Positions 33,696 through 47,479 of a stretch of 57,008 nt of DNA are shown piece by piece (position 1 is the first letter of the stretch; every line of letters starts with the position of its first letter). A model generated the notes under the pieces. It did not search any database. It had not been told where the DNA came from and saw only the letters and a list, made by a program, of their open reading frames with translations. The translations under genes and the position numbers were made by a program. The stretch is taken from assembly GCA_040220235.1 (NCBI GenBank), contig JAVJTO010000035.1; one strand, 5' to 3'. This DNA is from Coleofasciculus sp. B1-GNL1-01 (GTDB taxonomy: Bacteria > Cyanobacteriota > Cyanobacteriia > Cyanobacteriales > Coleofasciculaceae).

Positions 33696-35225
<1,530 letters not shown>

Positions 35226-35237
35226 CTAAAAAATAGT

Positions 35238-35312
35238 GCCGCACAAGTTTAGAAAGCTGTTGGGTTTACCGTGACAGGGTAAGTATGTAAGCTTTCCCAA
35301 TTAGGGCGCGGC
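35238..35312 (-). ncRNA. Scaffold RNA cassette 1 carrying only an anticodon stem-loop (GUC, Asp-like)
   Basis: CGCGCCCTAATTGGGAAAGCTTACATAC-TTACC CTGTCAC GGTAA-...CAGCTTTCTAAACTTGTGCG. Confidence 0.75.
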
Positions 35313-35353
35313 GACAACTGCCATTTGTTTTTGCAAAGATGGGGTTGAGGAAA

Positions 35354-35410
35354 GGGCGACCCGAGCCTATTAAGCGGACAACGGTGTTACGTTGTGCAAG
35401 CGGGTCGCCC
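35354..35410. other. Strong hairpin between the L7/L12 paralog and cassette 1
   Basis: GGGCGACCCG...CGGGTCGCCC 10-bp stem with inner ACAACG/CGTTGT stem. Confidence 0.55.
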
Positions 35411-35513
35411 CTACATCCGAACCAAAGGTGACATTCTAAAATACTTGAATCAGAGCTTCGATCTCTGGAAATGTCCAAGATTTATTAATGCGATCGCGCA
35501 TACTCAAAATCTC

Positions 35514-35903
35514 CTACTGAACCGAAACCCCAGCCCCAGCAAGTTCTAACTGTTGCTTGATTTCTTCAGCCACTTCTGGCGTAACAGCTTCCTTCACCAC
35601 TTGGGGTACTGACTCAACAAAATCCTTGGCTTCCTTTAATCCTAATCCCATTAGCGTCCGTACCACTTTGAGAATGGCGATTTTTTTCTCTGCGGGAACA
35701 TGATCTAAAATCACATTAACCTCAGTCGGTACGGGTGGTAGTGGTGAATGGTCATCACTTAGGTGGGTTATGCTGTTATAAAATAGGGGTTTTGGAGAAG
35801 CATCGACGCCAAATGTGACTTCAATTTGCTTGACCAATTCAGAGGTTTCCAGGAGAGTTAACGATTTAAGTTGTTCTAGAATTTCAAACGTTTTGACTGA
35901 CAT
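35514..35903 (-). CDS. rplL: Ribosomal protein L7/L12 paralog
   Basis: LKSLTLLETSELVKQIE..FGV N-domain and KIAILKVVR..GLGLKEAKDFVE C-domain; atypical hinge; not in an rplKAJL context; ATG at 35903 with GGGGA RBS. Confidence 0.88.
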   Translation of the reverse strand: MSVKTFEILEQLKSLTLLETSELVKQIEVTFGVDASPKPLFYNSITHLSDDHSPLPPVPTEVNVILDHVPAEKKIAILKVVRTLMGLGLKEAKDFVESVPQVVKEAVTPEVAEEIKQQLELAGAGVSVQ

Positions 35904-35927
35904 CGACGTTTCCCCCGTAATATTAAA

Positions 35928-36053
<126 letters not shown>

Positions 36054-36089: not shown

Positions 36090-36217
36090 TCACTTCGCGC
36101 AAGTTTAAAAAGCCGTGAGTCATACGCAGGATTTGAACCTGCATGATCTTGAGCCTAAATCAAGCGCCTTTTCCATTTGGCTAGTATGTAAGCTTTTCCG
36201 GTTGGGGCGCGAAGTGA
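36090..36217 (-). ncRNA. Scaffold RNA cassette 3 with normal-order tRNA mimic (UAG, Leu-like)
   Basis: TAGCCAAATGGAAAAGGC D arm, CTTGA TTTAGGC TCAAG, GCAGGTTCAAATCCTGC T arm; closing stem TCACTTCGCGC. Confidence 0.85.
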
Positions 36218-36240: not shown

Positions 36241-36417
36241 ATATCCCGCGCAAGTTAGCAAAGCCGTATTACTTGGCGCTCTATCCATTTGAGCTATAGC
36301 TGCATTGAGTGCAGCTAGTAGGACTCGTTCGCCGTAGGCGTTCCCGAAGGGTACCTACAACCTCCCGCTTCGTAGGCGGAACAGTATGTAAGCTTCACAA
36401 GTAAGGGCGCGGGATAT
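36241..36417 (-). ncRNA. Scaffold RNA cassette 4 with circularly permuted tRNA mimic (ACG, Arg-like), T loop interrupted
   Basis: Order: anticodon arm (TCCGC CTACGAA GCGGG), T arm, closed acceptor TAGCTGC-loop-GCAGCTA, D arm GCTCAAATGGATAGAGC. Confidence 0.85.
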
Positions 36418-36500: not shown

Positions 36501-36640
36501 GGTGCGATCGCGCAAGTCAAAGCAGCTTGTTTTTTTACACCTCTCCCAGAGGCGGAGAGGGCAGGAATCGAACCTACAATCTGAGTTTAAGTCAGACGTT
36601 ACCAGTTTGTAAGCTTCTTCAGTTGGGGCGCGATCGCACC
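36501..36640 (-). ncRNA. Scaffold RNA cassette 5 with circularly permuted tRNA mimic (UAA loop, Ser-like acceptor)
   Basis: TCTGA CTTAAAC TCAGA, GTAGGTTCGATTCCTGC, closed acceptor CCTCTCC-GCCTCTG-GGAGAGG; closing stem includes HIP1 on both arms. Confidence 0.8.
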
Positions 36641-36661: not shown

Positions 36662-36814
36662 AGTGGGAATTCGCGCAAGTTCAAAAAGCGGTTTGTGTTT
36701 CTGAGCTACTCCCCCAAATAGTGGGGGAGAAAGGATTTGAACCTCTGACAGTTCGATTATCAATCGAATGCTCTACCGTTTGTATGCTTTTCCAGTTAGG
36801 GCGCGAATTCCACT
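36662..36814 (-). ncRNA. Scaffold RNA cassette 6 with circularly permuted tRNA mimic (GAU, Ile-like) opened in the D loop
   Basis: GGTAGAGC, TTCGA TTGATAA TCGAA, AGAGGTTCAAATCCTTT, CTCCCCC-ACTATTT-GGGGGAG, TAGCTCAG. Confidence 0.85.
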
Positions 36815-36833: not shown

Positions 36834-37046
<213 letters not shown>

Positions 37047-37484
37047 TCAAATTTGATTCGATTGGTGTTCATCTTATCTATTTCTGGAGCGAACATCTTC
37101 ATTTTGTTAAAACGACCAGCATTGAGTTAGGTTCACAAACACTGATAGTTCTTAGAGTAAGAAGCGCCGCTCTAAAGAATAGAGGGTTTGGCTATAACGG
37201 ATTTGAGCAGTCATTTGATTTTGACTATTATCATTTGACTCTAAATGTTCTTTTGCCGTCATAGATGGGGTTGAATTTCGCTGATTCGGTTTAGTATCCC
37301 ACTCGATAGGCGTGAGAACATGACGAACCAGGGGGGTATACAGGAATAACATAATGAACCGATTCCGATTACAAAAATCCTGATTGACCTTCGTGAAAAT
37401 TCCCGACGTTTTATTCAATTTTCAAGGTTCAGACTGGACGTTTGAGGTTAAGAGTTGTGCCTCTCATTTCTCTGTCATGTATTT

Positions 37485-37513
37485 ATACTACATATATACT
37501 ACAGACTTGTCAA
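37485..37513 (-). promoter_or_regulatory. Sigma70-type promoter overlapped by a TGTAGTA-N4-TGTAGTA direct repeat
   Basis: TTGACA-17 bp-TAGTAT on the minus strand, pointing into the RNA-array locus. Confidence 0.7.
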
Positions 37514-38721: not shown

Positions 38722-39663
38722 TTAAATATCCTTAACATAAGCGATTTGACTGTGTGTGGTCTGGAAACCCACCGATTCGTATAACCGCCGCGCCCCAGAA
38801 GGATTTTCCGCATCGACATACAGCATGGCGGTTTCCATACCTTCTAGGTTTAACTGTTGCATCACTGCTTGTAACATGCTTCGTGCTATACCCTGCTTGC
38901 GGTAACCGCGCCGAGTACCCAGCAGATTAATCCAGCCCTGATTCCCTTGTTTGGGAATGTAGCAGTCGCAAAATCCAGCCCAAGTACCATCAGGCGCGAT
39001 CGCAACTACAGATAAGTCCGCTCGAAAGTCTGGATGCTTCAGCTTGTGCTTAAAGGCTTCAACGGTATCTGGGTGATAATTCCAGTGATCAATAAACGTA
39101 TCGTTACATAGTGCCACCCAAGCTTGAGCATCCGGTTCACCTTGAATCGGGCGTAAGGTAAAACCATCGGGTAACTGGGGTTCTGGTATCGGTTCAGACA
39201 GTGAACGCATCATCGTGAGAAAGTAGCGCTCAATCCGGAAACCATAGTTTTCCAGAAGAGTCATGCGTTTAGCTTGTTCAGCGCCAGCACCAGCCAGCAG
39301 TTTGACCGCCAGATGACGTTCTTGACAAACTTCCTGCATTCGTGCTTCTGCCCAAGCGATAATGTTCCTGTATAGAGACTCAACCCGTTGCGTGGGATGA
39401 ACACGAAACCAGAGAAAACCATCAAGGACATCGCCCTCTGTGGGAGTCATCAACCCCGCTAATGCAATTAATTGACCCTCTGCATCTTCCCACAAGCGAA
39501 TATCCCGTTGCTGATCCACTGAGGGCGCATCAAATTGCATTAATATGTCGGATACTGGGGGGTACTCGTCGGGCGGATCAACGGCGGCACAGGTTTTCAG
39601 GAGGAGTGCGATCGCATCTAAGTCGGCTTTACCCCTGTGGGAGCGCATGGTTAGAGTTGTCAT
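38722..39663 (-). CDS. Tandem-domain GNAT acetyltransferase (paralog of the neighbour)
   Basis: LGTRRGYRKQGIA, ARRLYESVGF; probable start MTTLTMR by alignment with the paralog. Confidence 0.9.
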   Translation of the reverse strand: MTTLTMRSHRGKADLDAIALLLKTCAAVDPPDEYPPVSDILMQFDAPSVDQQRDIRLWEDAEGQLIALAGLMTPTEGDVLDGFLWFRVHPTQRVESLYRNIIAWAEARMQEVCQERHLAVKLLAGAGAEQAKRMTLLENYGFRIERYFLTMMRSLSEPIPEPQLPDGFTLRPIQGEPDAQAWVALCNDTFIDHWNYHPDTVEAFKHKLKHPDFRADLSVVAIAPDGTWAGFCDCYIPKQGNQGWINLLGTRRGYRKQGIARSMLQAVMQQLNLEGMETAMLYVDAENPSGARRLYESVGFQTTHSQIAYVKDI

Positions 39664-39857
39664 AGAATTAAGCAGATGAGTGAGTTGCTGCAATTTGTGC
39701 AACTCCATAAGAATTTTACTACATGTATACTACAAGCTGGAGCAGAAATAGCACTTCATCCTGTCGATTCACCCAATTGGGTGAACTCATCGCCTAATCT
39801 GAAGCGGTTTCTATCCTCTAATAAATTGGCTACTAATCAACTTGTAAGTTAAGGATT
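39608..39857. repeat. ~250-bp direct repeat, copy 1 (GNAT 5' end and upstream region)
   Basis: Aligns by eye with 47232-47479; both copies start at HIP1 GCGATCGC. Confidence 0.9.
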
Positions 39858-40234: not shown

Positions 40235-41149
40235 GTGACCCTAATATCCCAAGCAGAGACTTCACCAAAAGAAGTTGCCCCTATTTTTGCCCGCCATGAA
40301 ACCTTTCACCCAAGGTTTAGTTGGCTCAAAAAAGGATTTGATGCTGCTCGTCAAGACTCCAGCGTATTTCTAAAAGACGATGCCCCCGTTATTTTAGGGG
40401 TGGGGAAGAACATGGTACGTTCTATTCGCTACTGGTGTCAAGCGTTTAAGGTTCTAGAAGAAGACCAGCCGACTGATTTCGGGTGGAAAGTTCTCGATGA
40501 TAGGGGTTATGATCCATTCCTTGAAGATCCAGCTTCGTTATGGTTACTTCATTGGTATCTGCTAAAACCGCCTTGTGAGGCTGCGGCTTGGTACTACGCT
40601 TTTAATGTATTCCGTCAAGTTGAATTTACATCTGAAGATTTGCTCAGAGGACTCAAAAACTATAGAACTGAATTAGGAACTCGTACCGCTGAATCGTCTC
40701 TCAAGAAAGATGTAACCTGTATTCTCCGCATGTATAGTCAGCCAGAAGGGAAAACGAAATTAATAGAAGACTCTATTGATTGCCCTTTTGCTGAACTTGG
40801 AATTATCCGGATGACAGTAGACGCTAAATACTATACCTTCCGCATTGGACAAAAAGTGAATCTTCCGGCTGAGATTATTGTTACGGCTTGTTTAGATTAT
40901 GCCCAAACTCGTGGCAGTTCAAAAACCATTTCAGTTTCCAGTCTGACTTACGACACGGGGAGTCCTGGGGTCGTCTTTAAACTCCCCGAAAGTGCAATTG
41001 CCGAAGCGATTGAGAAGACATCTCGTAGCACGAAAGGACTTGCCCTTTCTGATACCGCTGGATTAGTTCAATTTTCGTTTACTCAAGACGCTACTGTACT
41101 TATAGAAGAGATATTAAATCAGTATTACCGAACGAGAGGTCATCAATGA
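40235..41149 (+). CDS. DUF4007 protein (SspB-like)
   Basis: FARHETFHPRFSWLKKG, LGVGKNMVRSIRYW, DPFLEDPASLWLLHW. Confidence 0.9.
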   Translation: MTLISQAETSPKEVAPIFARHETFHPRFSWLKKGFDAARQDSSVFLKDDAPVILGVGKNMVRSIRYWCQAFKVLEEDQPTDFGWKVLDDRGYDPFLEDPASLWLLHWYLLKPPCEAAAWYYAFNVFRQVEFTSEDLLRGLKNYRTELGTRTAESSLKKDVTCILRMYSQPEGKTKLIEDSIDCPFAELGIIRMTVDAKYYTFRIGQKVNLPAEIIVTACLDYAQTRGSSKTISVSSLTYDTGSPGVVFKLPESAIAEAIEKTSRSTKGLALSDTAGLVQFSFTQDATVLIEEILNQYYRTRGHQ

Positions 41150-44100
41150 ATCGTCAAACGCTTGAACAATATTTTAGTCTCAACCGTCGTTACTCTCGTT
41201 CAGTGAACGTAGAGCGAGATTTAACTCGAATAGAGGCTTTAAAGGGTTATGTTTTAACGGAACGGGCAGTCGATGCTTTGCGACGGATTTTAAAAGGCTT
41301 AACCACGGCTGAAGCCAATCATGCTTGGACATTAACCAGTGTTTATGGCACCGGAAAGTCTGCGTTTACCCATTATCTTACCTCCGTCTGCGCTCCTGCT
41401 CAGAGCCAAATGCGTTCCTCTGCTTTAGAAATTGCTCGGCATACATTAGGTACAGAAAGTAGTGACTATCAAGCGTTAACCCAACTTCCGGAAAAGGGTT
41501 TATTTCGAGCTGTAGCCACAGCAGCAAGAGAACCGATTAGTCATACAATTGTGCGGGGATTGCTGCGAGGAGCAGAGACGTTTTGGAAATCTCCTGCTAA
41601 GCGGAATCAAATCCCTGTTGTGGCTAGGTTGGTGGACTTAGATACAGAAATAGAGTCTGGAGAAATTATTGACAACCGAGAAATACCGAAGTTAGTCCAA
41701 GACGTGGCTAAGGCAGCGAATACAGGAGTCTTTCTGGTTATTGATGAATTAGGGAAAAATCTGGAATATGCCGCTTATAACCAAGGGACAGAAGACCTCT
41801 ATGTCTTACAACAATTAGCGGAACTTCCTGGAGATAGCAAAACGCCGATTTATATTTTAGGCATTCTCCATCAAGCCTTTGCCGAATACGGACAACGATT
41901 AGCCACAGTTCAGCGGAATGAGTGGGCGAAGATTCAGGGGCGATTTGAGGATATTCCGTTTACTGAATCGGCTGGACAAATGATGCGGTTAATCGAGAAC
42001 GTGATTAACCTTGAATCCCCTGATAAAATTGCCTGTCAACTTAATAGTTATGGTAATGAGTGGTCAGAGGGATTAGCAAGGGTTTTGACAGGAGAGGAAT
42101 TGCCAACTAATATCTTTAAGGGGGTTTATCCGCTACATCCTCTATCCGCCTTAGTGTTACCGACACTCTGCCATCGTTATGCCCAAAATGACCGTTCCTT
42201 ATTTACGTTTCTCACCAGTGCTGAACCTTATGGGTTGAGAAACTTTCTCCAAACGGTTAGTCTTGACGGGGAAAGTTTCAGTTTACCGACTCTAAAATTA
42301 GATTGGATTTACGACTATTTCATTGAAGCGGCGGGGATGGGACTGGCATCTCGTCCTAATCTACAACGATGGGTGGAAATCCAAGATTTGATTGCTGATG
42401 CGAGGTATTTAGAACCCGATTATCTCAAGGTGCTCAAAGCGATTGGTATTTTGAATCTGGTGACGACAACGGGGGCGACTCGGGCGACAAAGCGGTTAGT
42501 CACGTTGGCAATGTGTGACTTTCCCAATAACCCGGATCAAATTGCCTATTGGGAAACCGTTATTGAGGGTCTTTTGCGAAGGGGAGTAATTACCCATCGT
42601 CGCACCATGGATGAACTGCGAATTTGGCAGGGATCTGATTTTAATGTGGATCAAGCCCTGTCGGAGTATTTGGAAAAAGACCGTTATTCTTTGGTCAATT
42701 TGTTAGCATCCCTGCGTTCATTGCCACCAATCGTGGTACAACGGCATAGTTATAAAACAGGGACATTACGCTATTTTGAACGGCATTATTTAGATAGCAC
42801 ATCGGATTTAACTCAACTCCAGTGCGACAGTGCTGATGCGGATGGTTATGTGGGATATTGGGTGGATGATGAGTCGCCAACTCAGGTTCCCGCCGTAACT
42901 GACGATGGCAAACCTTTGGTTTTACTGGGTGCAGCAAAATTAGATGTTCTTCGCTTACGTAGCCGAGAATATGCGGCTTTGAAAGCGATTCAAGATACGG
43001 CATCAGAATTACAATCGGATGGGGTAGCCCGCAAAGAAGTGCGCTTTCGGGTAGTTCAAGCCGAACAGCTTTTGGATGAAACCCTGGCGCAAGCGTTTGA
43101 GATGACTGGGAATGACCAGCAATGTTGGGTACAGGGGGAAGCAGAACGGATTGGTCACATTACGGATTTTAATGCCAAGCTGTCCGAGGTGTGCGATCGC
43201 GTCTATGATCAAAGTCCGATTCTGTGGAATGAATTGATTAACCGTCGGGATCTCACCTCCCAAGGCGCAAAAGCCAGACGGGAACTGATTACAGCAATGG
43301 TTGAACGGGGGAATCAGGAAAGGTTAGGACTAAAAGGCTATGGTCCGGAAGTGAGTATGTACTATTCCCTGTTAGGGGAAACAGGTATTCACCGTCAAGA
43401 GGAGGGGGAGTGGGACTTTTACCCACCCTCGGAAGGGTCTAACGTGGGTTCCTTTTGGCAAGCGATTGAGGACTTTTGTTTATCCGCTAAGGAGAAACCC
43501 AAAAGCCTTGACCAAATTTATCAGCGTTTAGCGGCTGCACCCTACGGTATCAAACCTGGGGCAATTCCGGTGATGTTAGCGGCGGTTCTGCTACACCATG
43601 TTGATGATCTGGGGGTTTATCGAGATGGAACGTATATTCCAATTTTGGGTTCAGAACATTTTGAGTTATTGGTCAAAGATCCCTCGCGGTACGCGGTGAA
43701 GTATTTTGAAGTGGTGGGGTTGCGATCGCAAGTCTTTAAGGAACTCGAAGCGATTTTACGCCAATCAAAGCTTAAGAAAGGGAAAATCCGGAATGCTACG
43801 CTGTTAACGGTTGTGACTCCTTTATATCAATTTGTTAATCGGCTTCCGGCTTATACGAAGCAAACCAAGCGAATTAGTCAGGAAGCGCAGAGGGTTTTGA
43901 CCGCACTCAAGGAGACAACTGAACCGGATGAGTTGTTATTTACCCAGTTACCCAGGTCCTTCAATTTACCGCCGATTGAGACAGAAGCCGGGGATGATGG
44001 GACAATTGCCAAAAGCCTGCGTTCGCAACTGGTGCAGGTACTACGGGAGATTAATACAGCTTACAAAGGCTTGTTGAGTGAATGTCAACGCTTGCTGCAC

Positions 44101-44571
44101 AATGCGTTTGGGGTCAGTAGTCGGGAACAAAAACTACGGGAAGAATTGCGGGTGCGATCGCGTCCTTTGGTGGGGAAATGTGTCGAACGAACGTTGCGAA
44201 GTTTTACCCAAGCGGCGGTGGATGAGGAGAAGACAGACAGGGAGTGGTTAGCAGCTTTGGTAATGATTGTCGCCGATAAACCGGCGGAGTCATGGACGGA
44301 TGAAAATGTCACGGGGTTTGAAATTAAACTGTCGGATTTAGCGCGGCGGTTTAAGAATCTGGAAGCGTTAGATCATGAAACTCGCGACCAAGGGGAAGGG
44401 TTTGATGCGCGTCGCATTACGGTAACGCAACCGGATGGAAAGGAAACCCACCGTTTAGTCTGGGTTGAGCGTGATCAATCCCAGAAGCTGGATCAGTTGG
44501 TCAATAAAGTCTTGCAGGAGGAGATTTTGCGGGATAATCCTCAACTTAACAAAACCTTAGTTTTAAATTGA
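41146..44571 (+). CDS. Large P-loop ATPase (SspC/BrxC-like)
   Basis: RSVNVERD, YGTGKS Walker A, VIDELGK Walker B, EWAKIQGRF, YPLHP, QNDRSLF; ATGA overlap with DUF4007. Confidence 0.88.
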   Translation: MNRQTLEQYFSLNRRYSRSVNVERDLTRIEALKGYVLTERAVDALRRILKGLTTAEANHAWTLTSVYGTGKSAFTHYLTSVCAPAQSQMRSSALEIARHTLGTESSDYQALTQLPEKGLFRAVATAAREPISHTIVRGLLRGAETFWKSPAKRNQIPVVARLVDLDTEIESGEIIDNREIPKLVQDVAKAANTGVFLVIDELGKNLEYAAYNQGTEDLYVLQQLAELPGDSKTPIYILGILHQAFAEYGQRLATVQRNEWAKIQGRFEDIPFTESAGQMMRLIENVINLESPDKIACQLNSYGNEWSEGLARVLTGEELPTNIFKGVYPLHPLSALVLPTLCHRYAQNDRSLFTFLTSAEPYGLRNFLQTVSLDGESFSLPTLKLDWIYDYFIEAAGMGLASRPNLQRWVEIQDLIADARYLEPDYLKVLKAIGILNLVTTTGATRATKRLVTLAMCDFPNNPDQIAYWETVIEGLLRRGVITHRRTMDELRIWQGSDFNVDQALSEYLEKDRYSLVNLLASLRSLPPIVVQRHSYKTGTLRYFERHYLDSTSDLTQLQCDSADADGYVGYWVDDESPTQVPAVTDDGKPLVLLGAAKLDVLRLRSREYAALKAIQDTASELQSDGVARKEVRFRVVQAEQLLDETLAQAFEMTGNDQQCWVQGEAERIGHITDFNAKLSEVCDRVYDQSPILWNELINRRDLTSQGAKARRELITAMVERGNQERLGLKGYGPEVSMYYSLLGETGIHRQEEGEWDFYPPSEGSNVGSFWQAIEDFCLSAKEKPKSLDQIYQRLAAAPYGIKPGAIPVMLAAVLLHHVDDLGVYRDGTYIPILGSEHFELLVKDPSRYAVKYFEVVGLRSQVFKELEAILRQSKLKKGKIRNATLLTVVTPLYQFVNRLPAYTKQTKRISQEAQRVLTALKETTEPDELLFTQLPRSFNLPPIETEAGDDGTIAKSLRSQLVQVLREINTAYKGLLSECQRLLHNAFGVSSREQKLREELRVRSRPLVGKCVERTLRSFTQAAVDEEKTDREWLAALVMIVADKPAESWTDENVTGFEIKLSDLARRFKNLEALDHETRDQGEGFDARRITVTQPDGKETHRLVWVERDQSQKLDQLVNKVLQEEILRDNPQLNKTLVLN

Positions 44572-44575
44572 AACT

Positions 44576-45976
44576 ATGGGAAAAGCAGGTCAAGCACTCA
44601 AACAAGTTTTAACGTCTTACGACATCAGCCAAAGCCAACTGGCGACAGAGTTGGGGGTTGAGCGTCCTATCGTCTTTCGTTGGTTTCATGAGCAGACCGA
44701 TCCTACCGCTGAAACCGTTGCGGAGATTGTCAGAGCTATACAAGCCATTGATCCAGAAGCCTCTAGAGAGTTTGTTGAGCTTTACTTAGGTCATCTGACA
44801 ACCAACGCACCTATGAACTTGATCAGACTTGACTCTGAACAGCTACCCGAATCAGATCAAGTTGATGTAGTTGCGCTATCTCGCCTCTTTTCAAACACCA
44901 CCACATCTTATAAATACCTCTTTTTCCTGTCTCTTCTTGACATTCTTAAACGACGACAGTTTGAAGTGCTTTCTTCAATCAGCTTTAAAGAAATAATCGT
45001 CGAAATGTTGGCAAATGCTTGGTATCCTCACACTTACTTTAAGCTGTCCTTTGGAACGCAAGATAAAATTGCTCAAAAACTGGACTCTTTAACGTTAGAG
45101 ATTACCGAGCCAATACTAAAGTTTACAGACACCAACAAAAAGTTATTACGGAAAACAATTGTATCTCAAGACTTGATCAATTTAATTATTGATCTTAAAC
45201 GCTATGTTCCCTTTCGCCTCATTGCCCCTTTCTTAGATGCGGAACTCAAAGCAGCAAAGGTTAGTAAAGGTAGAGGTAATGATTTAGAAAAGGCTATTCC
45301 TGCCATTGCTGATCAATATTTTGACTCCCAAAAACCTTTATATAAATTTGACCAAACAGATTACAACGATTGTGAATCCATTTTCATTCATCCCGATTGG
45401 GCGACTTATTTAGAAAAACACTATGCCATTATTCGGGGTTGGGCATCCTGGGAATGGGTGAAGTATATGCAGCAACGTAATCCCAACGCGCCCAACATCG
45501 TCAGTAAAATATTTATGCCTCAGCAAAGAGGCTCTTTATCCTCACAGACGAAATACTGGAAACAGGTTTTAGCGGTTCAACCGATTAGCTGTATTTATTC
45601 AGGACAACTTTTAGATCAAAAAAATCTCAGTTTGGATCATTACTTGCCTTGGTCATTTGTTGCCCATGATCAGCTTTGGAACTTAATTCCAACTCATCCA
45701 AGTGTCAACGCTTCTAAATCTAATAACTTACCTTCAGTAACCTACTTTAACGATTTTGTTAAATTACAATATTTGGGCTTGACTGCTTCTTGCCAAGTCC
45801 TGAGTCATCAAAAATGGTTAAAAGCCGTTGAATCCCATATTTCTGAGTTAAAGATGAGCGATGCTGAAGATCTACTCGACATCGAAAAATTAAGGAAGGC
45901 ATACGAACTAACAATTAATCCTTTGATGTCTTTAGCTACTATTCAAGGCTTTAGCCCCGATTGGTCATATCACTGA
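44576..45976 (+). CDS. XRE-HTH + HNH endonuclease
   Basis: N-terminal ISQSQLATELGV HTH; CIYSG...SLDHYLPWS...WNL...NASKSN HNH. Confidence 0.85.
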   Translation: MGKAGQALKQVLTSYDISQSQLATELGVERPIVFRWFHEQTDPTAETVAEIVRAIQAIDPEASREFVELYLGHLTTNAPMNLIRLDSEQLPESDQVDVVALSRLFSNTTTSYKYLFFLSLLDILKRRQFEVLSSISFKEIIVEMLANAWYPHTYFKLSFGTQDKIAQKLDSLTLEITEPILKFTDTNKKLLRKTIVSQDLINLIIDLKRYVPFRLIAPFLDAELKAAKVSKGRGNDLEKAIPAIADQYFDSQKPLYKFDQTDYNDCESIFIHPDWATYLEKHYAIIRGWASWEWVKYMQQRNPNAPNIVSKIFMPQQRGSLSSQTKYWKQVLAVQPISCIYSGQLLDQKNLSLDHYLPWSFVAHDQLWNLIPTHPSVNASKSNNLPSVTYFNDFVKLQYLGLTASCQVLSHQKWLKAVESHISELKMSDAEDLLDIEKLRKAYELTINPLMSLATIQGFSPDWSYH

Positions 45977-45986
45977 CTTAAATTCA

Positions 45987-47189
45987 ATGGTGCAGGACTT
46001 CGGGAAAGGCAAATCTTACTTTGCACTCACTGTCCTGATTTATTTAGATTATCACACCACCACTCCGACTGATCCGAGAGTTGCTGAAAAAGTCTTAGCA
46101 TCTATGACGTCTCAGTTTGGCAATGCCAGCAGTACGGATCATATTGTAGGCGATCGCGCCGCCCAAGCCGTTTCCCAAGCTGCTCAACATCTAGCTCAAT
46201 TAGTGGGCGCATCCCCGAAAGAAATTATCTTTACATCGGGGGCAACCGAAAGTATTAATCTTGCAATTCAAGGCACTATCGCCGCCAGTCATGACTCTTT
46301 ACCTCGCATTGCCATCTCTCCGGTAGAACACCAAGCGGTTTTAGATACCTGTAAAGCATTAGAGAAAAGAAGACGGGCGGAAATTATTTACCTTCGCGTT
46401 GATTCCCAAGGCAGGTTAGATTTAAACCACCTCGAACAAATCTGTCGGGATGGGGTTTCCTTGCTCTGTGTCATGGCAGCTAATAACGAGATTGGGAACA
46501 TCTATCCCCTTGAAAAAATTGGTCGTATTGCCCAGAATCATAATATTCCTTTCTTATGCGACGGTTCCCAAGCCGTAGGTAAGATTCCGATTAACGTTGC
46601 TGAATGGGGAATCACTTATTTAGCGGTGTCAGGACATAAATTTTATGCTCCCCAAGGGGTTGGCGCTTTGGTGGTTAAACGTGGTTATACCCTAGAGCCA
46701 ATCTTGTTTGGAGGAGGACATCAAAAAGGATTACGATCGGGTACGTTAAATCTGCCTGGAATTGTCGGTTTAGGGGAAGCCTGTCGATGGCGACAGTTGG
46801 AGATGGTACAAGATGAGAGTGCGATCGCCGCTAAACGCGATCGCCTGCAAGCTCAATTGCAAGCAAAAATTCCCGAACTTATCATTAATGGAGATATTAA
46901 CTCCCGTCTAGCTGGAAACCTGCATATCTCCATTCCAGGTATCCCCAACAGTGCCATGATCGCCAGAGTACGTGGAAAATTAGCCATTTCCAGGGGATCA
47001 GCTTGTTCATCGGGCGTAGAAGCCCCTTCTCATGTTCTGCGTGCGATGAATCTTCCTGAAAATGTTATTGAGGGAGCATTCCGAATCGGAATCGGGAAAT
47101 TTACGACAGAAGCTGAAATTGACCAAGCGGCGGATATTTTAGCGAGTACTGTTAAAGACATTTCTCGTTTACTCACTGAGAACGCCTAA
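45987..47189 (+). CDS. Cysteine desulfurase (IscS/DndA/SspA-like)
   Basis: IYLDYHTTTP, FTSGATES, SGHKFYAP, GSACSS. Confidence 0.92.
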   Translation: MVQDFGKGKSYFALTVLIYLDYHTTTPTDPRVAEKVLASMTSQFGNASSTDHIVGDRAAQAVSQAAQHLAQLVGASPKEIIFTSGATESINLAIQGTIAASHDSLPRIAISPVEHQAVLDTCKALEKRRRAEIIYLRVDSQGRLDLNHLEQICRDGVSLLCVMAANNEIGNIYPLEKIGRIAQNHNIPFLCDGSQAVGKIPINVAEWGITYLAVSGHKFYAPQGVGALVVKRGYTLEPILFGGGHQKGLRSGTLNLPGIVGLGEACRWRQLEMVQDESAIAAKRDRLQAQLQAKIPELIINGDINSRLAGNLHISIPGIPNSAMIARVRGKLAISRGSACSSGVEAPSHVLRAMNLPENVIEGAFRIGIGKFTTEAEIDQAADILASTVKDISRLLTENA

Positions 47190-47231
47190 ACTCAAGTTCC
47201 AACATGGCTACGGGATTGAGAAATAATCAGG

Positions 47232-47479
47232 GCGATCGCGTCTAAATCAGCTTTACCCCGATGAGGGCGCATGGTTAGAGTTGTCATAGAATTAAGCAGA
47301 TGGGTCAGTTGCTGCAATTTGTGCAACTCGATCCTTAATTTACTACAGGTATACTACAAGTTGGAGCAGAAATAGTACTTCATCCTGTCGATTCACCCAA
47401 CCGGGTGAACTCATCGCCCAATCTTAAGCGGTTTCTGTCCCCCAATAAATTGACGACTAAAACTTGTACGTTAAGGATT
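47232..47479. repeat. ~250-bp direct repeat, copy 2 (truncated GNAT 5' end)
   Basis: Aligns by eye with 39608-39857. Confidence 0.9.

Follow-up and report, generated by a model that had tools for sequence, protein, structure and literature searches.

What role can a bare anticodon arm play in an RNA that lacks the rest of a tRNA? The question is raised by a small cassette at 35238..35312 (minus strand) of a 57,008-nt stretch of Coleofasciculus sp. B1-GNL1-01 (GCA_040220235.1, contig JAVJTO010000035.1), the whole of which is called the window here. The cassette consists of a 7-bp closing helix (35306-35312 with 35238-35244), a conserved internal loop (CCYRAY / ACUU), an inner helix (35290-35299 with 35250-35258), a conserved, unpaired linker, UACAUAC (35283-35289), and an anticodon-arm-like hairpin, TTACC-CTGTCAC-GGTAA (35266..35282), all on the minus strand. 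A sequence-only reading had taken this hairpin to be the entire insert; the hairpin and its coordinates are confirmed on the minus strand, and an unpaired 3' tail of 8 nt, omitted there, also belongs to the insert. The same reading correctly recognized CUGUCAC (35271-35277) as the anticodon loop of tRNA-Asp(GUC). An 11-nt segment, made up of the loop and the two base pairs next to it, is identical to the housekeeping tRNA-Asp(GUC) on host contig C63; the remaining stem differs. A gap of 60 nt separates the end of the cassette from the start codon of a vWA gene (ATG at 35177), in agreement with the distance of about 60 nt given earlier.

The hairpin alone is weak evidence, because chance stem-loops of that type recur in the window: across both strands, 5-bp Watson-Crick stems close a real host anticodon loop four times and CTGTCAC once. 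The exact 17-mer of the hairpin has a single occurrence in the 8.66-Mb genome. The cassette is judged real because the hairpin sits within a scaffold present in six copies, of which it is the shortest and last in one operon. Positions 35232-35322 fold into the proposed structure at -27.9 kcal/mol (z -2.7), and 4 of 200 shuffles fold equally well. Neither ARAGORN nor Rfam calls the cassette, and it has neither the cloverleaf nor the acceptor stem of a tRNA gene. The lack of an acceptor stem excludes aminoacylation for this cassette, as the sequence-only reading had supposed in favouring another role. A 70-aa ORF with a TTG start (35266-35478) overlaps the cassette region. Genome-wide scans reveal no further complete cassette outside the window; a candidate seventh copy on contig C100 of the same genome (G000; C100:978-1005) was rejected as a 5' scaffold half for which no 3' half was found. 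This half lies directly after a tRNA-Arg gene, about 6 kb downstream of a tRNA array.

Comparison across loci shows that the cassettes form a modular non-coding RNA family in which a conserved two-helix handle carries exchangeable inserts. The set of 79 loci comprises the window, 38 loci and 40 stretches from 39 of the 46 genomes that encode the vWA protein; 30 short loci, mostly superseded, were omitted, and because the loci share descent, the counts overstate independence. A search by motif plus pairing finds 263 cassettes at 68 of the 79 loci, and 260 of these are distinct. In the closing helix, pairs one to six are kept in 98-100% of the distinct cassettes and have changed on both sides; the search itself partly demands this pairing. 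The bases of the internal loop and the linker are nearly invariant. A single locus can hold up to seven cassette RNAs, all with one common handle. An independent pattern of the scaffold's 5' half is present in 49 of 401 genomes sampled from the cyanobacterial phylum. It separates sharply by gene content, since the handle motif occurs in 44 of 46 genomes with the protein versus 5 of 355 without it, with one copy in each of those five; in the two protein-bearing genomes that lack the motif, the gene is partial or interrupted. At least 18 of 29 phage loci have similarly built cassettes next to the homologue. The exact minimal-cassette pattern has no match in viral contigs, and a metagenome scan returned seven short loci, none with cassettes. 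Contigs from four RNA-library sets show the locus in a related strain; coverage of the stretch is even and may stem from DNA.

The protein that accompanies the handle is 493 aa long (33696..35177, minus strand) and combines helical repeats with a vWA domain bearing an invariant DxSxS..D motif; its MIDAS residues D300, S302, S304 and D403 are invariant in 65 sequences. The protein itself has no Pfam match, and Pfam and NCBIfam yield no useful name. Pfam vWA_Ro60 is matched by 15 of the 65 homologues, and Pfam TROVE (PF05731) is matched by none of them and by no protein of the window's genome. The predicted structure is of middling quality (pLDDT 72, pTM 0.48); the 11 best of the listed fold matches are all Ro60/Rsr (E 4.6e-9 to 4.3e-7; next listed, 0.019), with TM about 0.5-0.6 over about 510 columns. 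Solved TROVE proteins are no more than marginally similar in sequence (E 0.018 and 0.22); a profile alignment with a phage TROVE protein is collinear, at an E of only 0.22. The protein is read as a divergent Ro60-like family. It is found in 46 of the 401 sampled genomes and, near full length, at 29 viral loci on contigs of up to 572 kb; its nearest relatives (97-99%) belong to Coleofasciculus. At one locus (L105), a deletion has probably joined the start of a gene for a small ubiquitin-like protein, in frame, to the vWA-coding part of the Ro-like gene. Like the terminal stem of Y RNA for Ro60, the handle is probably the binding site of the Ro-like ring.

The inserts displayed on this handle are diverse. 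Among the 260 distinct cassettes, 66 carry a tRNA in normal order, 58 a permuted tRNA in the order T arm, looped acceptor and D arm, and 31 a tRNA opened in the D loop; 44 have short inserts, 17 hold H69-like pieces and 11 sarcin-ricin plus L11-site pieces, and the remainder have an insert of no assigned kind (8) or are unclassified (25). The other cassettes of the window, all on the minus strand, represent the three tRNA forms. Two contain a normal-order tRNA, one with a GUA loop, in which the scaffold linker supplies the 5' acceptor strand (35933..36048), and one with a UAG loop (36096..36211). A third carries a permuted tRNA made of an anticodon arm, T arm, looped acceptor stem and D arm (36247..36411), and two carry a tRNA opened in the D loop, with a UAA loop (36509..36632) and a GAU loop (36672..36805). 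Short palindromic insertions break T loops and other loops in several cassettes (window 36328-36352; L003, L009, L014, L024 and L082).

Ribosomal RNA is copied as well. Tested against a real cyanobacterial 23S gene, insert profiles match positions 1895-1925 (E 5.6e-8) and 1057-1133 (E 2.4e-12), an insert matches the sarcin-ricin loop (2637-2649) at 13 of 13 bases, and another match covers Rfam LSU positions 1093-1148 (51.2 bits). We take the sites represented to be H69, the sarcin-ricin loop and the L11-binding region. In total, 53 of 225 inserts match 23S versus 5.4 shuffled, many of the matches being trivial (12 nt). The 3' half of H69-type cassettes (e.g. L006, L033, L099) weakly matches 23S 1814-1826 and 1883-1901 (E 0.09-0.18), and no 16S match was found for it; as these weak matches precede H69 in the ribosome, the insert is possibly a circularly permuted rRNA piece. 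The window's own assembly contains no intact rRNA-type cassette. Cassettes with sarcin-ricin plus L11-site pieces can be separated from the Ro-like gene by tens of kb (in genome G029, L159, by 57 kb), and at L099 the L11-site match falls inside a tRNA array. Among the phage contigs (such as L112, L121, L122 and L126), L121/L122 have a short cassette 84 nt upstream of the gene, L123 has an H69-like piece and L126 an L11-site-like piece; other phage cassettes hold non-tRNA inserts of no assigned kind. A conserved two-hairpin insert of 64-93 nt, mostly gene-proximal (L006, L033, L088, L091, L093, L094, L097, L098), was considered as a 23S piece and set aside, since its profiles find no match in 23S or 16S and Rfam gives none either. 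The sequence-only reading had favoured a decoy or sensor for anticodon nucleases, and the sister cassettes with 23S rRNA pieces favour that idea of a possible decoy.

Among the short inserts, the shape of the anticodon arm is conserved across species, and the triplet is not. Of 39 distinct short inserts, 28 have a stem of at least 4 bp that closes a 7-nt YU....(A/C) loop; 2000 shuffles average 0.42 such inserts and never exceed 4. A purine at position 37 is found in 19 of these arms (shuffles, 0.22). The best hairpins have 7-nt loops in 26 of the 39 inserts (shuffles, 2.1). The stems vary in sequence yet stay paired, and the arm form appears on several separate branches of the Ro-like protein tree, for which the full gene is present at 47 of 52 gene-proximal loci. 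The GUC triplet, by comparison, is found in 6 of 41 short gene-proximal cassettes, five of them in one genus-level clade, and ten different triplets occur among the short inserts; these counts do not support selection on the Asp anticodon itself. Because the triplet varies while the arm shape is kept, Asp is not the point. The earlier claim that the anticodon loop is under selection is thus upheld for its shape and abandoned for its Asp triplet; the loop is far from random across orthologues in form, and largely random in triplet.

A role specific to Asp, in which selection would keep the GUC loop for reading or sensing either Asp codons or a nuclease specific to Asp, is accordingly very improbable. 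The 11-nt identity with the host tRNA-Asp speaks for it, as do the same loop on a changed stem in a distant lineage (L095) and the retention of the loop in five of six Coleofasciculus-clade proximal cassettes on the tree. It is opposed by the low share of GUC and the range of triplets, and by a near-identical relative (L004) that has GCC. Exact host loops of other tRNAs are also found: on differing stems, the host loop for Asp, Asn, Tyr or Lys recurs unchanged in 10 of 22 distinct arms. Counted by distinct loops, exact host loops number 4 of 15 versus 1.1 expected under uniform triplets (P=0.014), an excess that disappears when triplets are permuted among loops (P=0.23). The tRNAs for Asp, Asn, Tyr and Lys are commonly cut by anticodon nucleases, which serves here as a lead only.

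The full-length cassettes extend this picture to decoding. Their 135 loops include 34 triplets, and 14 loops would read stop codons. The anticodon triplet differs at 18 of 75 sites (0.24) versus 0.17 at four-fold sites (P=0.076), and cassette sequence outside the loop diverges at 0.048 versus the same 0.17. Diversifying selection or an arms race on anticodons was rejected as undemonstrated, the excess over four-fold sites not being significant. Since triplets drift, stop-readers occur and the rest of the cassette is conserved, the cassette RNAs probably do not decode, conserved though they are. A codon-reading role, which had been offered beside the decoy, is unlikely given the number of triplets, the stop-readers and a triplet divergence close to the neutral rate. 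The drifting triplets with their stop-readers would also suit decaying tRNA pseudogenes or a small functionless repeat element, as would the interrupted or truncated cassettes (L014, the C100 remnant) and a host that already has a broad normal tRNA set. This explanation is largely refuted by the low divergence outside the loop, by helices that covary and by a motif nearly confined to protein-bearing genomes, and it is the least probable of those considered.

The position of the minimal cassette points to a second function. The 10 nt upstream of it (35313..35322, minus strand) form a 5' flank typical of the gene-proximal cassette; it is found in 44 of 263 cassettes, nearly all gene-proximal, and pairs with a leader element at 35202..35220 (minus strand). 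This element is also complementary to the Ro-like gene's Shine-Dalgarno sequence (35182..35187, minus strand). Pairing between flank and element is significant in 28 of 39 leaders, pairing between element and Shine-Dalgarno sequence in 23 of 39, and both in 21. In 12 sequences, the flank-element helix is 98% paired with both-side changes at 3 of 10 pairs, and none of 500 shuffles reaches as high a covariation score; over 37 leaders, both-side changes occur at 4 positions. The helix persists despite insertions of more than 100 nt between scaffold and element. The alternative helix of the element with the Shine-Dalgarno sequence is 97% paired, shows no both-side change and is absent from one clade.

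These pairings make a feedback switch in the leader likely. The sequence-only reading had raised an autoregulatory leader: the covarying flank-element helix favours it, while in the window the Shine-Dalgarno core stays mostly paired in every state modelled, both in the unconstrained ensemble and under either enforced helix. With the flank masked, the Shine-Dalgarno sequence becomes costlier to open in nearly all loci (in the window, 9.0 instead of 4.8 kcal/mol), an effect that is partly built into the calculation. Protein binding, or RNA processing that removes the 5' flank, would free the leader element to pair with the Shine-Dalgarno sequence, so that output of the ring would match the supply of partner RNA; this step is rather likely. 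Alternatively, the flank-element helix may be a processing signal.

Given its place in the leader of the Ro-like gene, the minimal cassette could in principle be nothing but an operator for Ro-like autoregulation, with the anticodon arm a capping hairpin left over from a deleted permuted tRNA. One locus (L005) does contain a fresh deletion product of a permuted cassette in which the arm alone is left. The flank-element helix is specific to the proximal slot, and that slot accepts other contents: the anticodon-arm form is missing from 14 of the 41 short inserts found there, and some gene-proximal copies hold the unrelated 64-93 nt insert, so the arm is dispensable there. Yet a cap needs no 7-nt YU loop, and the arms keep 7-nt loops far above the shuffled level while their stems change on both sides; moreover, arm-only cassettes occur away from the leader in L077, L094 and L097. 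A purely regulatory role is therefore unlikely, and the preferred reading is that the arm also acts as bait, as set out below.

The operon's promoter suggests when the RNAs are made. The best promoter match of the region, TTGACA-17-TAGTAT (37485..37513, minus strand), is overlapped by tandem TGTAGTAT, a TrcR-type box, and no minus-strand terminator was found downstream of it. In Anabaena, TGTAGTAT repeats over the -10 box constitute the TrcR site (PMC10272220, PMC8421152), and the operon has the same arrangement in its sequence. The 8-mer lies within 600 nt upstream of the ubiquitin-like gene at 48 of 58 loci and on the opposite strand at 2 of 58, with a chance expectation of 0.0055 per search interval. 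The same box heads the host's tRNA array, and L094 and L099 lie directly behind a tRNA array. The operon is probably induced by translational stress; it would be silent in normal growth and switched on together with the spare tRNA array when translation is impaired. Its first ORF (37152..37352, minus strand), between the promoter and the ubiquitin-like gene, encodes 66 aa with conserved MLLLYT and LERRF ends at 21 loci and could be a regulatory peptide. Elsewhere in the window, a repeat pair (39605-39836 and 47229-47460, 88% identical) carries a TrcR-type tandem box in each copy on the minus strand (39734 and 47358); the box at 39734 heads two GNAT genes, and that at 47358 points into the end of a plus-strand aminotransferase gene.

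Taken together, the preferred explanation, held at somewhat better than even odds as a whole, combines a handle for the Ro-like ring, baits made of translation RNA and control through the leader. The inserts would draw nucleases that cut tRNA or rRNA, and other proteins that bind translation RNA, to the ring, and the bait of the minimal cassette would be the anticodon arm alone, with shape mattering more than triplet. This part of the explanation is about as likely as not. Structure, conservation, linkage and promoter motif are read directly from the sequences; binding, induction, baiting and regulation are inferred.

The partner genes allow a more elaborate proposal. The operon encodes a ribosomal protein L7/L12 paralogue (35514..35939, minus strand), whose housekeeping-like copy is on contig C168, and a probable ubiquitin-like protein of 66 aa with Gly at its C-terminus (36834..37034, minus strand), its fold being inferred. 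No family library (Pfam, NCBIfam) names the latter; for it, the Ro-like protein and the OB-fold protein, the Atlas gives unnamed clusters or nothing. This 66-aa Gly-ending protein is present at 58 of 79 cyanobacterial and 17 of 29 phage loci, and 59 of 63 small proteins have the terminal Gly; several phage versions extend beyond it, and the cyanobacterial ones stop there. An E1 resembling the ThiF/MoeB/TcdA families accompanies 29 of 79 cyanobacterial and 21 of 29 phage loci, and an OB-fold protein with an invariant Cys 31 of 79 and 26 of 29. The L12 paralogue is restricted to cyanobacterial loci (21/79 versus 0/29) and a JAB-like gene to phage loci (0/79 versus 23/29). Contig C133 of the window's genome carries both the OB-fold gene and the E1 gene.

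Fold comparison yields nothing clear for the OB-fold protein (no match above Z 6.3 or below E 0.001) and reveals no E2 fold in it, and Pfam and NCBIfam give it no useful name. Complex prediction pairs it with the Ro-like protein at a score of 0.57, against 0.00 for the best control; by the tool's own rating this is weak support, with at least 54% of contacts common to the runs and a partner pLDDT of at least 72. For calibration, 18 of 157 solved complexes passed at 0.60 or less, and passing mismatches numbered 2 of 215, both at or below 0.60. Further unnamed families recur among the cassettes, one of 154 aa at 22 of 79 loci (e.g. L089:6242-6706) and one of 235 aa at 21 of 79 (e.g. L020:3387-4094). 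Outside the operon, plus-strand positions 40235-47189 of the window consecutively hold a DUF4007 gene, a 1141-aa protein without Pfam match, an HTH-HNH protein and a class V aminotransferase, a row that we presume to be a defence-type cluster.

In this tentative proposal, which we consider possible and rather doubtful, the ring would present look-alikes of translation RNA, and the attackers they attract would be marked with the ubiquitin-like protein by the Cys-bearing OB-fold enzyme. The kit would comprise anticodon arms, whole and permuted tRNAs, H69, the sarcin-ricin plus L11 factor-binding centre and a spare L12; the targets would be nucleases, toxins or phage proteins that go for these baits. 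The anticodon-arm cassette in the leader would then serve as bait and at the same time set the amount of ring, and in large phages the system would shield the phage's own translation from host RNases.

The same genes can be interpreted, in place of protein tagging, as a relay of sulphur or adenylate that serves to modify or repair RNA, with the small Gly-ending protein and the E1 as carriers and the cassettes as substrates, guides or quality-control templates on the ring. The families that the E1 resembles are compatible with such chemistry, as is a partner with an invariant Cys and an OB fold like those in RNA-binding proteins, and the TrcR regulon includes the RNA ligase RtcB (PMC10272220). 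Against this, the JAB-like gene at phage loci and the phage small proteins that run past Gly fit the processing of a conjugated modifier, though sulphur carriers can undergo processing too, and no ligase or thiolase family is present among the 28 commonest neighbour clusters. The relay is improbable.

Among the closest known systems is the bacterial Ro60 (Rsr)/YrlA pair. According to the parts of PMC4201824 used here, it shares with the present family RNAs encoded on the same strand within a few kb of a gene for a helical ring plus vWA, a terminal stem with an internal loop, and a distribution over bacteria and phages. If the neighbouring gene counts as Ro60, the minimal cassette conforms in being 60 nt upstream of a Ro60-fold gene on the same strand, well within 4 kb. 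The YrlA domain of T arm, looped acceptor stem and D arm (PMC4201824) recurs in the 58 permuted cassettes among the 260 and is absent from the minimal one. Unlike YrlA, the family has the GNCGAAN0-1G motif near the 5' end in only 3 of 260 distinct cassettes, the handle having CCYRAY instead. The minimal cassette has no match to RF02553 (gathering score 69), and sister cassettes reach 17.4 bits (36247-36411) and 37.1 bits over model positions 24-84 only. Four insert classes, namely normal-order tRNA, D-loop-opened tRNA, the anticodon arm and 23S pieces, are without counterpart in the portion of PMC4201824 consulted for this comparison, and the protein here escapes the TROVE model, unlike bacterial Ro60. 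The cyanobacterial YrlA RNAs described there have GNCGAA-type 5' ends and lie beside TROVE proteins of 531-534 aa (PMC4201824); G029 carries a classical YrlA-type TROVE gene elsewhere in addition to the present system.

Thermus phage phiLo offers a second parallel, with a phage-borne Ro60 and short stem-bulge-stem RNAs, Yrl1 and Yrl2, upstream of the gene (PMC12135203). The phiLo Ro60 structures 9KOP and 9L5Y are also the nearest solved sequences to the Ro-like protein. Yrl1 and Yrl2 use a CGAA motif and recruit PNPase, and in contrast to the present family, neither tRNA or rRNA cargo nor ubiquitin-like partners are described in the part of that paper drawn on here (PMC12135203). On the transcriptional side, the TrcR regulon and the cyanobacterial tRNA L-array have the same TGTAGTAT repeats over the -10 box (PMC10272220, PMC8421152). 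Array tRNAs, unlike the cassettes, are charged, normal tRNAs (PMC10272220, PMC8421152) and have been suggested as sponges of toxin RNases (PMC8421152); the main texts of both papers mention neither vWA nor TROVE. The partner genes resemble prokaryotic ubiquitin-like conjugation operons as presented in the text available for PMC1779556, with a small Gly-ending protein, an E1, a JAB-like protein in phages and a Cys-bearing partner. They differ in that no E2 fold was found for the partner and the module is tied to an RNA array; vWA and TROVE are absent from that same text.

PRTRC-type operons are likewise prokaryotic ubiquitin-like conjugation operons. Permuted tRNA genes of red algae and Thermofilum have a circularly permuted order, which the permuted cassettes share; the cassettes differ by drifting anticodons and by closure with a protein-type handle rather than a splicing motif. 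Ribosomal-protein leaders mimic the protein's normal RNA site for feedback control, and in the same way the leader of the Ro-like gene would copy its protein's usual RNA site. ROT/TROVE proteins with tRNA-like partners in jumbo phages have been mentioned in general terms (PMC7824862), and Ro60 and E1-like genes have been noted, with no connection drawn between them, in one virus group (10.1101/2021.07.29.454249), both as stated in the excerpts considered here; the consulted portions of PMC7159879 and PMC1779556 give no description of the present system. The literature searched holds no account of a Ro-linked RNA set with rRNA mimicry and three tRNA topologies on one handle, and supplementary TrcR target lists could bear on novelty. 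The locus is thus best described as a Ro60-Y RNA-like pair that falls outside YrlA, a novelty that is provisional.

With this system, the function of Ro60 RNPs in bacteria and phages, and that of spare tRNA arrays, can be tested directly, as can the idea that decoy RNA shields translation from toxin RNases. For binding and cleavage assays, the minimal cassette offers the simplest construct. By its gene content and promoter, the locus links Ro-type RNPs to a ubiquitin-like module and the TrcR stress regulon. Known Y RNAs mimic tRNA. What appears to be new here, by the literature searched, is that Ro-linked RNAs also copy rRNA sites and present tRNA in three topologies, with the cargo swapped on one handle.
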